Positions 1,059-58,193 of a stretch of 64,000 nt of DNA are shown in pieces. Origin of the DNA: Minisyncoccia bacterium (GTDB lineage: Bacteria > Patescibacteriota > Minisyncoccia > Phycocordibacterales > GWA1-40-21); assembly GCA_049287185.1 (NCBI GenBank), contig JBAQFI010000012.1, positions 54,659 through 118,658 on the forward strand, read 5' to 3'. The translations under genes and the position numbers were made by a program. The notes below the pieces were generated by a model. That model was not told the DNA's origin and did no database searches. It saw only the letters and a list, made by a program, of their open reading frames with translations. Within the stretch, counting starts at the first letter, position 1. Each line of letters starts with the position of its first letter.

Positions 1059-1712
1059 CTAATAAATACAAAAAGATTTAACGGGTTCCGCAGTAAGCCT
1101 AAATGGTTTAACATAGTTTCCCCCTTTTAATGTCCGCCATTTTCCATCCCACGAGATATTCAGTAAAAAACGTGCTGGTCTTAAACCATTATCACTCACA
1201 ACGTGAATAATAAAAATATAATCCCCTGGTAATAATTCATTTTTAATACTACCACTAGGAAAAGCTTGTGCCATTATTCGCAAAATCTGTTCTCCCTCAC
1301 ATATATAACATACATCTAACCTTCTTTTATGTTTAGGTAAAACGTCTACGGGAGCTATTTGGGCTTCATGCGCCCATTTTAATTTCACTGGAGCTCTAAA
1401 TTCATCAATTCTAGAATAGTTCAGCCCTTTTTCGTTTTTGATCCAAATCTCCGTAAGATATGCCTCCGTATTTTTTGATATTTCAAACCCCCTATTCTTA
1501 GCCATTAGGTGTATCCAATAAGATTGTGGCCTAGAGGGGTGATCTAAAAGTTTGACCTCATAGTACGTCTCTTTTGGAGAAAAAAATATTTTGAATTTTG
1601 CCTTATAAAAAATAAGTTTAAACAATGCATATGGAATAGCGATAATCGTTAAAAAAGCAGCAACTTGTGGTATTACAGGAGATTTTATTAAATTTATTAT
1701 AGAATCCATCAT
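1059..1712 (-). CDS. membrane-anchored hypothetical protein (N-terminal TM helix, unknown soluble domain)
   Basis: ORF track 217 aa; hydrophobic stretch VAAFLTIIAIPYALFKLIF; no recognisable motif; co-directional with neighbours. Confidence 0.45.
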   Translation of the reverse strand: MMDSIINLIKSPVIPQVAAFLTIIAIPYALFKLIFYKAKFKIFFSPKETYYEVKLLDHPSRPQSYWIHLMAKNRGFEISKNTEAYLTEIWIKNEKGLNYSRIDEFRAPVKLKWAHEAQIAPVDVLPKHKRRLDVCYICEGEQILRIMAQAFPSGSIKNELLPGDYIFIIHVVSDNGLRPARFLLNISWDGKWRTLKGGNYVKPFRLTAEPVKSFCIY

Positions 1713-54415: not shown

Positions 54416-55051
54416 ATGTCTTTTAGTCTAGAAAATATGCATCAAAAAATATTATCAAAAAAATTATTGCAGCCATTTGTTATTCTTTTTGGGATGATCA
54501 TTTTCGTAATTCTACTTCTTTATATTATTCCACAAATATCAATTGAAAATGGTGACAGGAATGTCCTTAATGGTAATAATATAGTTGAAGAAATTGATAA
54601 TAGTTTGGCATTACCTATTCGACTCAAAATTCCAAGTTTAGGTATCGACGCTCCCGTGGAGTCACTTGGCCTCACAACAGATGGATCAATGGACGTCCCA
54701 AAGAGTCCAGACAATGTTGGTTGGTTTGAACTCGGACCATATCCAGGAGAAATTGGAAGTGCTGTCATTGCCGGGCACTATGGTTGGAAGGATAATCTAC
54801 CTGCGGTGTTTGATAATTTATCTAAACTAAAGAAGACAGACAAAATATATGTTGAGGATAAAGAGGGAATAATCACTACTTTTGTCGTCCGCGAGATTCG
54901 TTCATTTGGTGAGAACGATGAGACATTAGATGTATTTAATTCTACAGATGGAAAAGCACACCTTAATCTAATCACTTGTGAAGGTATTTGGAATGCGTCA
55001 AATAAAAGTTATTCCAAAAGACTTATAGTGTTTACTGATAGGGAATTATAG
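54416..55051 (+). CDS. sortase (transpeptidase)
   Basis: N-terminal TM; LKIPSLGIDAPVE; catalytic His in AGHYGW, Cys in LITCEG, Arg downstream; immediately after its LPNTG substrate. Confidence 0.8.
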   Translation: MSFSLENMHQKILSKKLLQPFVILFGMIIFVILLLYIIPQISIENGDRNVLNGNNIVEEIDNSLALPIRLKIPSLGIDAPVESLGLTTDGSMDVPKSPDNVGWFELGPYPGEIGSAVIAGHYGWKDNLPAVFDNLSKLKKTDKIYVEDKEGIITTFVVREIRSFGENDETLDVFNSTDGKAHLNLITCEGIWNASNKSYSKRLIVFTDREL

Positions 55052-55062
55052 ATAAAACTTAA

Positions 55063-55092
55063 AAAATCTCTCCTAAGGAGAGATTTTTTAAT
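55063..55092 (+). terminator. rho-independent terminator
   Basis: aaaatctctcctaagg-agagattttttaat. Confidence 0.8.
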
Positions 55093-55110
55093 ACCCATTG
55101 CTTTATTATT

Positions 55111-55301
55111 GTGGACCGCACCGGACACGCTTTGCATTCTCCCTCGACTAAAACCTCGTCGCCACTCGGTTTTGTCTGGTCACGCCCTCACATAATTTTC
55201 TACTAAAAATCATTGGCTCCGGGCTTCGAGTCCGGACACGAGTGATGCCTATCACTCGCTTGCAGTCCATACAAAAAAATCGCTAATCGCGATTTTGTTT
55301 G
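55111..55301 (-). other. conserved ~190-nt tRNA-Ala(GGC) 3' trailer element ending in a direct repeat of the tRNA 3' end (att-like); possible ncRNA or integration remnant
   Basis: Minus-strand reading: terminator-like hairpin aaatcgcgattagcgattttttt, hairpin gagtgat-aggc-atcactc, conserved blocks ggactcgaa, cggagccaat, agtaga, atgtgag, ccagac, gacga, agtcgagggaga, then aagcgtgtccggtgcggtccac repeating tRNA positions 59-73. Confidence 0.5.
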
Positions 55302-55374
55302 TGGACCGCACCGGACTCGAACCGGTCACCTCTTCCATGCCATGGAAACGCTCTACCAGATGAGCTAGCGGCCC
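55302..55374 (-). tRNA. tRNA-Ala (anticodon GGC), no encoded CCA
   Basis: Reverse complement GGGCCGC-UA-GCUC-AUCUGGUA-GAGC-G-UUUCC-AUGGCAU-GGAAG-AGGUG-ACCGG-UUCGAGU-CCGGU-GCGGUCC-A; G3-U70 Ala identity pair. Confidence 0.85.
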
Positions 55375-55719
55375 TTAATTTGGAACTTCGACATTATATT
55401 ATTTTTTCATAAAAAAAGCCACCAGATGACTTTTTCTGCTTCACAGGTATACTCTCAACCGTGTGTGTAGGATTTTTCACCTACAAGTAAGCATTTTTTT
55501 CATCGTGTGCATTTCTGCAATCACGAGGAAGCTTTTCGCTCGCCACTACTAAGCTCCGGAAAATTTGTCTGGTGACTACACTATCTCTTGTGTTCGAAAC
55601 ACTAGACGACCCTTGTTAATCTAATCATCGAGATAAAAATATCTTAACAAGATTTTAGTGAAAATTCAATATTAATCTATTTACTTATATCTATTTTATG
55701 CTAATCTTATGTAGTTATT

Positions 55720-55792
55720 GGGCCCTTAGCTCATCTGGTAGAGCACCTGCTTTGCAAGCAGGGGGTGGCAGGTTCGAGTCCTGTAGGGTCCA
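55720..55792 (+). tRNA. tRNA-Ala (anticodon UGC), no encoded CCA
   Basis: GGGCCCU-UA-GCUC-AUCUGGUA-GAGC-A-CCUGC-UUUGCAA-GCAGG-GGGUG-GCAGG-UUCGAGU-CCUGU-AGGGUCC-A; G3-U70. Confidence 0.85.
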
Positions 55793-55976
55793 CAAATTTA
55801 AAACACCGAAAGGTGTTTTTAATTTGTGGACCCTAAGTAAGTGCTGGGCAGCACTTACGTCAGGACTCGAACAGCGGAGCCAATTTTTGTCAGTAGACAA
55901 AAATGTGAGCTGGTGCCCAGACTAAATTTTGTGACGACAAAATTTAAGTCGAGGGAGAGACTCCTGTAGGGTCCAC
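55793..55976 (+). other. conserved ~185-nt tRNA-Ala(UGC) 3' trailer element, homologous to 55111-55301
   Basis: Terminator hairpin aaaacacc-gaaa-ggtgttttt nested in a 23-bp stem pairing the tRNA 3' end (agggtccacaaattt...aatttgtggaccct); hairpin aagtgct-gggc-agcactt; same conserved blocks; ends cctgtagggtccac copying the tRNA 3' end. Confidence 0.5.
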
Positions 55977-56068
55977 TACGTTTTTAACTAATATTTTTCA
56001 AAGGATATTCTGGGTATCTAAAATATGATATACTATTTTTTATTGTTTTATTAATTTAATTAAATATA

Positions 56069-56374
56069 ATGTTTGAGTTTTTAAAATTTGGAAAAAGAGA
56101 AGAGAAAGAAGCAATAATTGTTGAAGATGGATTATTAAAACCAGAAATGAGCTTGGAAGAAATGAAGAGTATCGCTGACCAGCTTGAAAAGCTACAGTCT
56201 TCCGAAAATGAGGGACGAGGAGTTTCTTGTGTCAGAACAGCAATCTTTTATTTAAGAGGGGGTGATTTAGATGGAGCAAAAGCTGTCTGTAAAAATGACC
56301 ATGATAAAATTCAAAACTATCCAGATATTGAAAAATTTCTTGAAAAATACGGTTTAGCTTTTAAATTTGATTAG
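56069..56374 (+). CDS. hypothetical protein
   Basis: 101 aa acidic ORF; no motif. Confidence 0.35.
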   Translation: MFEFLKFGKREEKEAIIVEDGLLKPEMSLEEMKSIADQLEKLQSSENEGRGVSCVRTAIFYLRGGDLDGAKAVCKNDHDKIQNYPDIEKFLEKYGLAFKFD

Positions 56375-56621
56375 GTTATTGTATTTAATATCTGATACCT
56401 AGACTGATTAAATTCCAAGTTTAGTTACACCCTCTCAACCTGCACATCTCCCCCAAGCTCTCTTTTACTAAATGGCATGACCAGCCTAAAATTTCTGACG
56501 AGAAATTTTAAGGTGAGGGTGAGATTGGGATAAGGGACCCAATCGCAAGATCTTTTGAGATAGAGTCGAATGATTATAAGATTATATCCAAAAGGTGTAT
56601 TGTTCCTGTAAGGAAAATTCG

Positions 56622-56643
56622 AAGCGTGTCGGTGCGGTCCACA
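56622..56643 (+). repeat. third copy of the tRNA-Ala(GGC) 3'-end repeat, inverted relative to 55111-55132
   Basis: aagcgtgtcggtgcggtccac versus aagcgtgtccggtgcggtccac; lies in a 580-bp non-coding stretch. Confidence 0.65.
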
Positions 56644-56957
56644 AAAACATAGTGAGATGTAATTGTGCGCTAGCCTTTATTTGCTAAATATATTAAACTA
56701 GAATTACTATACCCTTAGGCAAGGAAAAATATAGTGTCGGTGCCTAACCACCCGTGTTCTAGATAGGAAAAGAGATTGCCAAGTAGTGGTGAACGAAAAG
56801 CAGTACGTGGGCATCTGCTACGGCCCACCGAAGCAAGAATCTCAAATTCTATAAAGGACTATACCTCAAAGGTAATCGGGTGGTTCTTTATTTATACATT
56901 TAATAACATAAGTTATTTAATTAGTCTTTTCTCCTCAAAAATGATACTTTATATTGA

Positions 56958-58193
56958 ATGAAGAAATACGACGTTATTGTTATCGGTGGTGGTCCAGCTG
57001 GCCTAATGGCAGCCAATACAGCAGCTAAAAATGGCGCTAAAGTTTTGGTATTGGAAAAAAACTCTGAACTAGGTAAAAAACTTCTCTTAACTGGCGGTGG
57101 AAGATGTAACCTTACTAATGCGGAAATGGATGTCAGAAAGTTTGTCAGTAAATTTGATAAAAAAGGACAAGTTTTGTTTTCTCCATTCTCAGTATTTGGA
57201 GTGAAGGAAACAATCGAATATTTCAATGTGCGAGGATTGGAGACCAAAATTGAGCCAGGTAATAGGGTTTTTCCGGTGACTGACAAAGCCATAGACGTAC
57301 TAAACATATTAATAGCTGAGGCTAAAAAGTATAAAGTTGAGTTTATTTTTGGTGTTGAAGTAACCGGCTTTGAATATAAAAAGGGAAGTATTACTGGTAT
57401 AAAAAGTAATCGAGAAATTTATCACGCAAATAATTATATTTTAGCCACTGGAGGCATGTCACATCAAGAAACCGGTTCCACTGGAGATGGTTTTAACTGG
57501 CTCAAAGAAATTGGTCATAATGTGATCACTCCACAGCCATCACTGGTACCGGTTAAAGTTTTAGAAAAATGGGTTAAGAATTTATCTGGTGTCGGATTAG
57601 ATATGGTTGGAATAAATTTGTATCAAAATAAAAAAGTAGTAGCAAAAAAAACAGGGAAAATATTATTTACACATTTTGGATTAAGCGGACCAGCTATTTT
57701 AAATTTTAGTAAAACTATTCGTGATTATCTGGCAGGCGGCAATGTTTTACTCAAACTTGATTTGTTTCCTGGAGTTGGACTAGACAAACTTGAGGATGAC
57801 TTCCAAAATTTAATTAAGGATAATTTAAATAAATTAATTAAAAATTTAACTTGGGAAAAGCTTCCAACTAATCTTTTACAAACTGTATTTGAACTGGCAA
57901 AAATTGATACTGATAAACAATTAAACTCCTTAACTCGCGAGGAGAGATTGACTATTCTAACCTTATTTAAAGCCATGCCACTCACTGTTATTGATTTACT
58001 AGGTTTTGAACACGCCATTATCTCTAGTGGTGGAGTTGATATAAACGAGGTTGAATTTAAAACTATGCAATCAAAAATTTATAAAAATTTATTTTTAGTT
58101 GGTGATGTACTAGACTTTGATAGACCATCAGGTGGATTTAGTTTACAACTTTGTTGGACGACAGGGTATGTCGCTGGAAATTCTATAAAATAA
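56958..58193 (+). CDS. HI0933-like FAD-binding flavoprotein (aminoacetone oxidase family)
   Basis: YDVIVIGGGPAGLMAA, GKKLLLTGGGRCNLTN, C-terminal GDVLDFDRPSGGFSLQ. Confidence 0.75.
   Translation: MKKYDVIVIGGGPAGLMAANTAAKNGAKVLVLEKNSELGKKLLLTGGGRCNLTNAEMDVRKFVSKFDKKGQVLFSPFSVFGVKETIEYFNVRGLETKIEPGNRVFPVTDKAIDVLNILIAEAKKYKVEFIFGVEVTGFEYKKGSITGIKSNREIYHANNYILATGGMSHQETGSTGDGFNWLKEIGHNVITPQPSLVPVKVLEKWVKNLSGVGLDMVGINLYQNKKVVAKKTGKILFTHFGLSGPAILNFSKTIRDYLAGGNVLLKLDLFPGVGLDKLEDDFQNLIKDNLNKLIKNLTWEKLPTNLLQTVFELAKIDTDKQLNSLTREERLTILTLFKAMPLTVIDLLGFEHAIISSGGVDINEVEFKTMQSKIYKNLFLVGDVLDFDRPSGGFSLQLCWTTGYVAGNSIK

Follow-up and report, generated by a model that had tools for sequence, protein, structure and literature searches.

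The 64,000-nucleotide stretch analysed in this study (the window; contig JBAQFI010000012.1 of a Minisyncoccia bacterium) contains two divergent alanine tRNA genes, tRNA-Ala(GGC) and tRNA-Ala(UGC). Each gene is followed, on its own strand, by a trailer of about 185 nt at its 3' side, and the two trailers can be aligned with each other. We give an even chance to the reading that these trailers belong to a family of small, protein-less and non-autonomous insertion modules, which sit at tRNA 3' ends in Patescibacteria and carry a structured RNA. No description of such elements was found in the literature, and the family is apparently undescribed so far.

The tRNA-Ala locus and its two trailer units

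The two tRNA-Ala genes were called concordantly by ARAGORN and Rfam (Rfam scores of 54 and 65 bits), and CCA is encoded in neither of them. A sequence-only reading of this stretch had described a divergent tRNA-Ala pair with homologous trailers, and the gene calls and the trailer alignment agree with that description; all the conserved single-stranded blocks that it listed are present in the alignment, and a terminator-like hairpin was found directly after each tRNA, where it had placed a terminator. The trailers contain no open reading frame (ORF) and are about 70% identical to each other outside the tRNA-derived parts. The 21-nt trailer motif ATTGGCTCCGNNNTTCGAGTCC occurs exactly twice in the 64 kb, compared with 0.02 expected occurrences.

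Each unit is arranged in the same order, namely, the terminator hairpin, a complement of the tRNA that is split by a hairpin (X'), a three-way-junction core and a copy of the tRNA 3' end (X). X was defined as the 3' part of the tRNA from T60 onward (positions 60-74+), and X' as the complement of tRNA positions 54 to approximately 74. The coordinates of all features are listed in Table 1. The copies of the cognate tRNA 3' ends that had been reported as direct repeats were recovered as D2 for GGC (55109-55129 versus 55299-55319; 21 nt, 95%) and D3 for UGC (55776-55793 versus 55959-55976; 18 nt, 94%). In the UGC unit, the terminator hairpin, X and X' together form a palindrome with 24-nt arms (55784-55835). 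The long stem noted over this tRNA 3' end is real and was recovered as I3, which has 24-nt arms with 96% complementarity and a 4-nt loop. A perfect 12-nt inverted copy of the T loop and T stem was also detected (I15).

Table 1 Features of the tRNA-Ala region and their positions in the window
Feature	Position	Strand	Remarks
tRNA-Ala(GGC)	55301-55374	-	A73 at 55302; ARAGORN, Rfam
GGC unit, terminator-like hairpin	55276-55296	-	A-tract, stem, U-tract; bidirectional; directly 3' of tRNA-Ala(GGC)
GGC unit, X'	55225-55271	-	acceptor-strand complement 55261-55271; Pc hairpin 55239-55258; T-stem/T-loop complement in next row
GGC unit, T-stem/T-loop complement within X'	55225-55236	-	CCGGACTCGAA
GGC unit, three-way-junction core	55143-55224	-	P2 with GGA/GAG internal loop, Pb, P3/P4, Pa with GRCGA-type loop
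GGC unit, distal X	55110-55125	-	TCCGGTGCGGTCCACA; copy of tRNA positions 60-76; pairs with X' to form P1
tRNA-Ala(UGC)	55720-55793	+	last 15 nt (55779-55793) are the proximal X; ARAGORN, Rfam
UGC unit, terminator-like hairpin	55794-55825	+	stem-loop 55800-55819
UGC unit, X'	55826-55871	+	GTGGACCCTA 55826-55835; Pc hairpin 55838-55857; CAGGACTCGAA 55861-55871
UGC unit, three-way-junction core	55872-55961	+	P2, Pb, P3, P4, Pa; 3' end ...GTCGAGGGAGAGAC
UGC unit, distal X	55962-55976	+	TCCTGTAGGGTCCAC; D3 repeat; flank beyond it homologous to the L052 empty-site flank
ORF101, orphan 101-aa ORF	56069-56374	+	between the UGC unit and the third copy
Third, decayed family member	56441-56645	+	P3/P4/Pa domain 56441-56544; insert of about 85 nt; GGC-lineage 3' end
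Third copy, X	56629-56645	+	TC-GGTGCGGTCCACAAA

Homologous units in other genomes

Homologues were retrieved by exact-motif scans of species-representative genomes and metagenomes, and the fetched loci (numbered with the prefix L) were then searched with a covariance model, R1, built from nine class-1 copies. The model matched the GGC unit at 55112-55275(-) with 152 bits and the UGC unit at 55821-55980(+) with 176 bits (minimum free energy of -68 kcal/mol), and it identified further copies in the fetched loci. The homologues came from Candidatus Paceibacterota, Taylorbacteria, Collierbacteria, 'Patescibacteria group' metagenome-assembled genomes (MAGs), unclassified MAGs and several metagenomes. 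Conservation of the trailer, whose absence from relatives would have refuted the sequence-only reading, was found in other genomes, after tRNA-Ala and after other tRNAs. Wherever a tRNA is present, the element lies downstream of it on the same strand, and at least ten tRNA species are occupied: Ala(GGC) (three times), Ala(UGC), Leu(GAG), His, Val, Gln(UUG), Gln(CUG), Asp, Thr and Lys.

Without exception, X and X' correspond to the tRNA beside them. The T-loop complement of the His copy (L004) is GGGAATCGAA and fits TTCGATTCCC of its own tRNA, and all other copies carry GGACTCGAA, which fits TTCGAGTCC. The units measure about 125-190 bp and fall into at least two main structural classes; class 1 resembles the window units, and the shorter class 2 has neither the Pc hairpin nor the acceptor portion of X'. 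Other structural variants were observed in L021, L020 and L058. The homology breakpoints are located at 53/54, where X' ends, and at 59/60 (class 1) or 56/57 (class 2), where the distal X starts; in class 1, the Pc hairpin splits X' exactly at the acceptor/T-stem boundary (65/66).

The copies form tRNA-specific lineages, in which the window GGC copy is grouped with L048 and L046, and the UGC copy with L046, L042, L020 and L052. A recent local inverted duplication had been considered as an origin of the two window copies. This origin is refuted: outside the tRNA-derived parts, the identity between the two copies is no more than about 70%, and copies in other genomes resemble each of them more closely.

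Class-2 units were also found behind tRNA-Thr, tRNA-Lys and tRNA-Asp in L012, L014 and L018, which are MAGs labelled 'uncultured Pseudomonadales'; either the family reaches beyond Patescibacteria or these short contigs were mis-binned. The Acidimicrobiia MAG SCS3bin.8 (L007, L013, L015, L017, L025-L028) contains a multi-copy, GC-rich repeat that shares the 21-nt trailer motif (TTGGCTCCGGTGTTCGAGTCC), followed by a hairpin-rich segment. This repeat was also detected in the metagenome loci L038, L043, L049 and L051, and no tRNA genes adjoin it. The Acidimicrobiia repeats were rejected as family members and are probably an unrelated family with a chance T-loop-like box.

Covarying structure and folding strand

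RNAalifold predicted 42 base pairs on the nine-sequence alignment, and 30 of them show compensatory changes. The closing helix, P1, is formed by X' and the distal X and reproduces the acceptor/T-stem 'top half' of the tRNA in double-stranded form. P2 is a long-range 4-bp helix at 'NNN' positions beside the conserved GGACTCGAA and GAG blocks, and its two strands covary among copies (CAGC/GCTG, GCCC/GGGC, GACC/GGTC, CGCC/GGCG and others). The remaining structure is composed of the Pc hairpin, a GGA/GAG internal loop, the Pb hairpin, P3 (CCC/GGG, with CCU/AGG variants), P4 (GAC/GUC, with a GGC/GCC variant) and the Pa hairpin, whose GACGA-type loop is conserved. The three-way architecture is shared by class 2. 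In class 1, P1 and Pc form an acceptor/T-stem stack that includes the natural 3' strand and the discriminator of the tRNA, with Pc placed at the 65/66 boundary.

The helices were evaluated further in 14 copies aligned to the covariance model. In this alignment, 96.3% of the cells pair, compared with 69.5% in column shuffles and about 40% with slid partners. Compensatory changes on both sides were found in 39 of the 42 pairs, and the observed values were reached in 0 of 500 shuffles. The 14-copy alignment was fitted to the model, and an independent MAFFT alignment yields the same helices. The covariation that the sequence-only reading had noted in the second hairpin of the two window copies is thereby extended to 14 homologues and exceeds chance. 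The distal copy of L024 has TCCAG in X and CTGGA in X', whereas its tRNA and proximal copy have TCCTA and TAGGA; this compensation within the helix points to selection on P1 itself.

The class-1 copies were also compared with respect to strand. On the tRNA-sense strand, 20 G-U pairs are opposed to 4 A-C mismatches (binomial p = 0.0015); for the core helices alone, the counts are 16 and 2, distributed over nine sequences. The alifold consensus energy is -43 kcal/mol for the tRNA-sense strand and -33 kcal/mol for the opposite strand. The counts and the consensus energy together indicate the tRNA-sense strand as the predicted folding strand.

An empty site, arrays and other elements at tRNA 3' ends

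A tRNA-Ala(UGC) gene with 92% similarity to that of the window was found in L052, and it is joined directly to a flank that matches the window flank after the distal X (local score of 41; shuffles 19.5 +/- 3, maximum 36). Therefore, one genome has the 183-bp unit and the other lacks it, and the boundaries of the unit lie at the X repeat. This comparison characterises the module as an insertion that is bounded by two copies of X and leaves the tRNA gene intact with its own terminator. The units show both the T-loop-to-3'-end direct repeat (D2, D3) and the presence/absence in relatives (L052, L058) of tRNA-integrating elements.

The closest relative found, L058, encodes a flavoprotein with 90% amino acid identity (82% for the gene), and the tRNA pair with its spacer is 80% identical at the nucleotide level. 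Two different units and no ORF101 are present behind its tRNA-Ala(UGC); the rest of this array region is unrelated to the window, and homology resumes only 37 nt ahead of the flavoprotein promoter region. No unit lies behind its tRNA-Ala(GGC), where a different mobile element is located instead. Tandem or nested copies were observed in L004, L020, L021, L048 and L058; truncation affects the distal copies, and the tRNA-adjacent copy is intact.

L052 also harbours, at 1127-1287(+), an intact unit of the UGC type, which has a terminator of its own and an X remnant upstream. It is located about 620 nt downstream of tRNA-Ala(UGC), and an unrelated orphan ORF of 141 aa lies between the two. This solo unit had been regarded as a positional orthologue of the third copy in the window, an assignment that was withdrawn as the flank similarity is not significant.

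The element behind tRNA-Ala(GGC) in L058 (534-2297) encodes a large serine recombinase of 506 aa (Resolvase, Recombinase and Zn_ribbon_recom domains), which ends exactly at the tRNA 3' end, where the small unit is located in the window. The recombinase frame continues into the tRNA antisense, and the last ~110 bp of the gene are repeated in inverted orientation just upstream (534-645). In L039 (1-130 and 9667-11088), an insert of about 11 kb separates a class-2 unit from tRNA-Gln. A homologous serine recombinase (41% identity) lies at its far end, the junction ...CAACA corresponds to the last tRNA bases, and the sequence at the left end of the insert is similar to the C-terminal coding region of the recombinase in inverted orientation. 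From these junctions it follows that tRNA 3' ends are also attachment sites for such elements in these bacteria. The ends of the serine-recombinase elements (ATTAGAGACATCC...) bear no likeness to the units, and the idea that the units mimic the attP of these elements was rejected because no sequence is shared.

The third copy and ORF101

A third GGC-type repeat in inverted orientation (near 56612-56652) had been noticed in the window, and it exists; I7 matches the tRNA end at 16/16 positions, and I4 and I8 also cover it. It is not an isolated att-like site, as it had been taken to be, but the 3' end of a decayed third family member, which the covariance model matched at 56441-56544(+) with 34 bits (E = 4e-10). 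This copy has no recognisable X', T-loop complement or P2/Pb. A Pfam search with ORF101 gave no match, and only 3 homologues were found among 5.8 billion proteins. ORF101 is a possible cargo, and its membership in the feature is uncertain; the proposal that it travels as cargo is unsupported, the only homologue that could be examined in context not adjoining an element.

Searches for known families

With Rfam 15, only tRNA was matched at the gathering threshold in the window, and nothing relevant was found at E <= 10 over 54900-57000 or at E <= 1 over eight element-bearing loci. The Rfam search that had been suggested for the trailers thus returned no family besides tRNA. No Rfam model of a self-cleaving ribozyme (hammerhead, twister, pistol, hatchet, HDV-like) was matched; a hammerhead suggested by the string CUGACGA in an L058 unit was rejected, as the rest of the core is absent by eye. 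Motif scans of viral contigs gave only chance matches with neither a structural match nor a tRNA, and no match was obtained by BLASTN against GenBank phages and PLSDB plasmids.

All-against-all clustering of the ORFs around the elements in 18 loci revealed no recurrent family. Pfam analysis of the 20 largest window ORFs identified housekeeping functions only, with no recombinase, transposase or reverse transcriptase domains; the absence of an integrase, stated in the sequence-only reading, holds for these ORFs. An integrase is likewise lacking within the elements, as units of 125-190 bp contain no ORF and have no recurrent neighbouring protein family. No TnpB, TnpA or IS110 recombinase is encoded beside any of the approximately 30 copies whose neighbourhoods were covered, and the unit alignments contain no integron cores (RYYYAAC...GTTRRRY), with no IntI in cis. 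The units do not behave as miniature inverted-repeat transposable elements, as the sequences of X' and X vary among copies and correspond to the local tRNA, and the duplication is tRNA-specific and 15-21 nt long. The unit was also rejected as a degenerate tandem tRNA duplicate; its T-loop segment runs antisense (ACTCGAA), and at position 3 it has A, which complements U70, in place of G. A weak promoter-like site was located at 56054-56025(-), upstream of the UGC unit on the opposite strand.

Favoured reading and proposed mechanism

In the reading that we favour, the units are insertion modules that would enter by recombination through X, either in a Campbell-type, site-specific event or in a homology-facilitated one, in which the conserved tRNA gene would serve as one anchor and X as the other. 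This route is the simplest because the module carries its own X. If insertion proceeds through X, the target would be set by the X and X' of the module and not by a protein encoded in cis, and the enzyme would be supplied in trans. The route would account for the target duplication, the tRNA-specific lineages, the lack of a cis recombinase and the arrays, in which proximal insertion would push older copies outward.

The structured molecule, as modelled, is probably RNA. It may arise when transcription from the tRNA promoter reads through, with subsequent trimming by the enzymes of tRNA processing; such a transcript could be processed by these enzymes because P1 and Pc imitate the 'top half' of the tRNA, including its natural 3' strand and its discriminator. 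Alternatively, the folded molecule could be a single-stranded DNA intermediate. Our best guess is that the RNA would be the working part of the module, acting as a scaffold or guide for its own insertion or as a payload. G3.U70 is the identity pair of alanine tRNAs (the alanyl-tRNA synthetase rule), and the RNA of the Ala copies would presumably not be charged because an exact complement gives A3-U70 instead.

A bolder version, which we consider a minor though tangible chance, is that the modules represent a new class of mobile element. The sole 'gene' of this class would be a structured RNA or folded single strand, which would hold an X':X image of the target and could be directed to any tRNA gene through changes in two short segments. 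Transcription would start at the tRNA promoter, tRNA enzymes would carry out the maturation, and re-insertion might occur by RNA- or homology-templated recombination or in the manner of integron cassettes, with tRNA genes as the attachment site.

Several points weigh against the insertion-module reading and its RNA product. The single clean empty site (L052) is also explicable by deletion between the two X repeats, and the tRNA-specific lineages fit long vertical residence too. Class 2 alone does not discriminate between the strands in the G-U/A-C test, and single-sequence folds are equally good on both strands (z = -7.5 and -8.1). No convincing promoter was found and a terminator-like hairpin lies between the tRNA and the module, which leaves the synthesis of a sense-strand RNA unexplained; the gene layout alone would fit a convergent RNA of the opposite strand that ends at the shared terminator.

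Alternative explanations

The trailer may instead be a resident, cis-acting and host-beneficial RNA that controls 3' maturation, CCA addition or decay of the tRNA, which we regard as unlikely. In precursors made by read-through, X' would form the 24-bp stem with the tRNA 3' end and the distal X would compete for X'. The common strand of element and tRNA, the conserved structure, the complementarity of X' to its cognate tRNA, which begins in the T loop and extends beyond the discriminator, and the lack of encoded CCA all agree with this role. However, a housekeeping trailer is disfavoured because the units are present or absent among close relatives with the same tRNA. The same site is occupied by different structural classes, tandem arrays contain decaying distal copies, solo copies lie far from tRNA 3' ends (L052 1127-1287; window 56441-56645), the terminator should block most co-transcription and P1 of L024 covaries away from the tRNA sequence. 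The 'conserved trailer ncRNA' of the sequence-only reading thus stands in part, as a conserved single-strand structure of tRNA polarity; its effect on tRNA 3' processing is hypothetical.

A serious alternative is a site of the integron attC type that folds as single-stranded DNA, even if the corresponding cassette model is about as improbable as the trailer role. X'-core-X would be folded like attC (R''...R'), the tRNA 3' end would act as attI, and units with or without a small ORF would be inserted beside the tRNA by a recombinase encoded elsewhere. The architecture X, cargo, X'-structure-X fits this model, as do strand-specific folding, arrays with the most intact unit proximal and the small unrelated orphan ORFs between tRNA/X and a distal unit in the window, L052, L024 and L045. 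Nevertheless, neither an integron integrase or other recombinase in cis nor GTTRRRY/RYYYAAC cores were seen, the context of the only examinable ORF101 homologue gives no support, and G-U-rich helices with a tRNA-minihelix mimic suit RNA at least as well.

It is quite unlikely that the opposite strand carries an independent small RNA gene, which would converge with the tRNA and share a bidirectional terminator with it; its match to the tRNA would stem from an inverted duplication. Read in that orientation, every unit ends at an A-tract/hairpin/U-tract terminator, the single-sequence fold is equally good (z = -8.1) and the weak promoter-like site at 56054-56025(-) is suitably placed upstream. 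The 20 G-U pairs would nevertheless become A-C mismatches, the alifold energy is poorer with more mismatches, and the insertion polymorphism and arrays would be left unexplained.

It is very unlikely that the units are scars, that is, the att arms of internally deleted prophages or islands that had integrated between the T loop and the 3' end of tRNA genes. The direct repeats span the T loop to just past the tRNA end, as attL/attR do, and large-serine-recombinase elements use tRNA 3' ends in these bacteria (L058, L039). On the other hand, the same size and architecture recur behind at least ten tRNAs in many genomes, compensatory changes in 39/42 pairs indicate that the structure is selected rather than decaying, the units contain no fragments of integrase pseudogenes, and the ends of the serine-recombinase elements share nothing with them. 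The suggestion of 'remnants of tiny tRNA-targeting integrative elements' holds in part: the units are insertions bounded by tRNA 3'-end repeats, but compensatory changes have preserved their helices in many lineages and behind many tRNA species, which shows that they are not remnants in decay.

An invertible 1.5-kb segment between inverted att-like repeats (55101-55142 versus 56612-56652), also suggested from the sequence, is extremely improbable and unsupported: the inverted repeats I4, I7 and I8 exist but are the 3' ends of two oppositely oriented family members (84-87% identical), no recombinase is encoded among the 20 largest window ORFs, and L058 has the same divergent tRNA pair with no such brackets.

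Neighbouring sequences

The spacer between the two tRNA genes (window 55480-55550(-)) is conserved in relatives (L058 2298-2597; L046 ~1100-1400). It contains AGTAGTGGCGAGCGAAA followed by AAATGCACACG, and a related 20-mer lies inverted at 56782-56801(+) (I5). AGTAGTGGCGAGCGAAA and AAATGCACACG resemble two neighbouring motifs of the 23S rRNA 5' domain, and they gave no match to the Rfam large-subunit rRNA models. The spacer could be a relic of an rRNA operon beside tRNA-Ala(UGC), or a small RNA. Upstream of the flavoprotein gene, a non-coding stretch of higher GC content (window 56740-56900(+)) shows long-range complementarity (CTAACCACCCG ... CGGGTGGTT) and is absent from L058; it may represent an additional structured insertion of a different type.

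Implications

If the favoured reading is correct, Patescibacteria hold widespread and unannotated structured RNA modules, and the 3' flanks of their tRNA genes are made hypervariable by modules that have no recombinase gene of their own. A new conserved RNA fold, namely, a three-way junction closed by a mimic of the tRNA 'top half', would be added in a phylum with poorly known non-coding RNAs. The specificity for the insertion target would be encoded in nucleic acid and not in a linked protein, which bears on the evolution of mobile elements and possibly offers a programmable insertion principle. The chance that a new nucleic-acid-specified insertion principle is involved is real but a minority one. 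For genome annotation, the distal copies of tRNA ends resemble the att sites of prophages and islands and will mislead island predictors. The conservative reading, in which the modules are simply tRNA-specific, non-autonomous insertions, also raises the question of how small genomes tolerate and use insertion at essential tRNA genes.

Comparison with known systems

The units share with the tRNA-integrating islands and prophages of tyrosine integrases, and with their integrase-less, cis-mobilizable derivatives, the repeat from the T loop to past the tRNA end, the intact tRNA and the tandem arrays. Integration from the T loop to the 3' end is reportedly one of the sublocations of tRNA genes in the classification that Williams published in Nucleic Acids Res in 2002. 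Unlike those elements, the units have no integrase in or near the copies, measure only 125-190 bp, possess a covarying structured interior and carry an extra antisense copy of the target; moreover, a single family occupies at least ten tRNAs with matched ends.

Integron cassettes and attC sites may have in common with the units a strand-specific folded site and an inverse copy paired with a direct crossover copy; new units would enter beside a fixed site and push older ones outward, and some are ORF-less. A folding-strand bias and arrays were observed for our units, in which the folded molecule may be DNA or RNA. In contrast to integrons, the units lack core sequences and IntI, are anchored at a tRNA gene and have tRNA-specific 15-25-mer arms, and their linkage to cargo is hypothetical.

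The omega RNA/reRNA of IS200/IS605 elements, the ORF-less PATE and the bridge RNA of IS110 resemble the units in combining a scaffold of ~150-190 nt with a 3' segment of 15-20 nt that is identical to the target, so that the target could be 'reprogrammed' by swapping this segment. The units differ from these guide-RNA transposon ends in that no TnpB, TnpA or IS110 recombinase was seen beside the copies and no Rfam match was obtained. Furthermore, the target copy of guide-RNA systems is unduplicated flanking DNA, whereas the target is duplicated here and accompanied by an antisense copy.

The 3' external transcribed spacers (3'ETS) of tRNAs can be functional, as exemplified by the small RNA sponge 3'ETS-leuZ of E. 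coli, and they likewise place a non-coding function in a tRNA trailer. They are short, unstructured and lineage-restricted, lie upstream of the terminator and are not insertions with target duplications, unlike the units. A structural likeness is found in the tRNA-like minihelices and 3' tRNA-like structures of RNA replicons and retroplasmids (the 'genomic tag' idea). The acceptor/T-stem stack of P1 and Pc is common to both, and the modelled stack could be handled by RNase Z, RNase P or the CCA-adding enzyme. The units depart from a tRNA minihelix in that their 5' strand is an exact complement (A3-U70 and not G3.U70 in the Ala copies), the helix extends past the discriminator and a junction of ~100 nt takes the place of the T loop.

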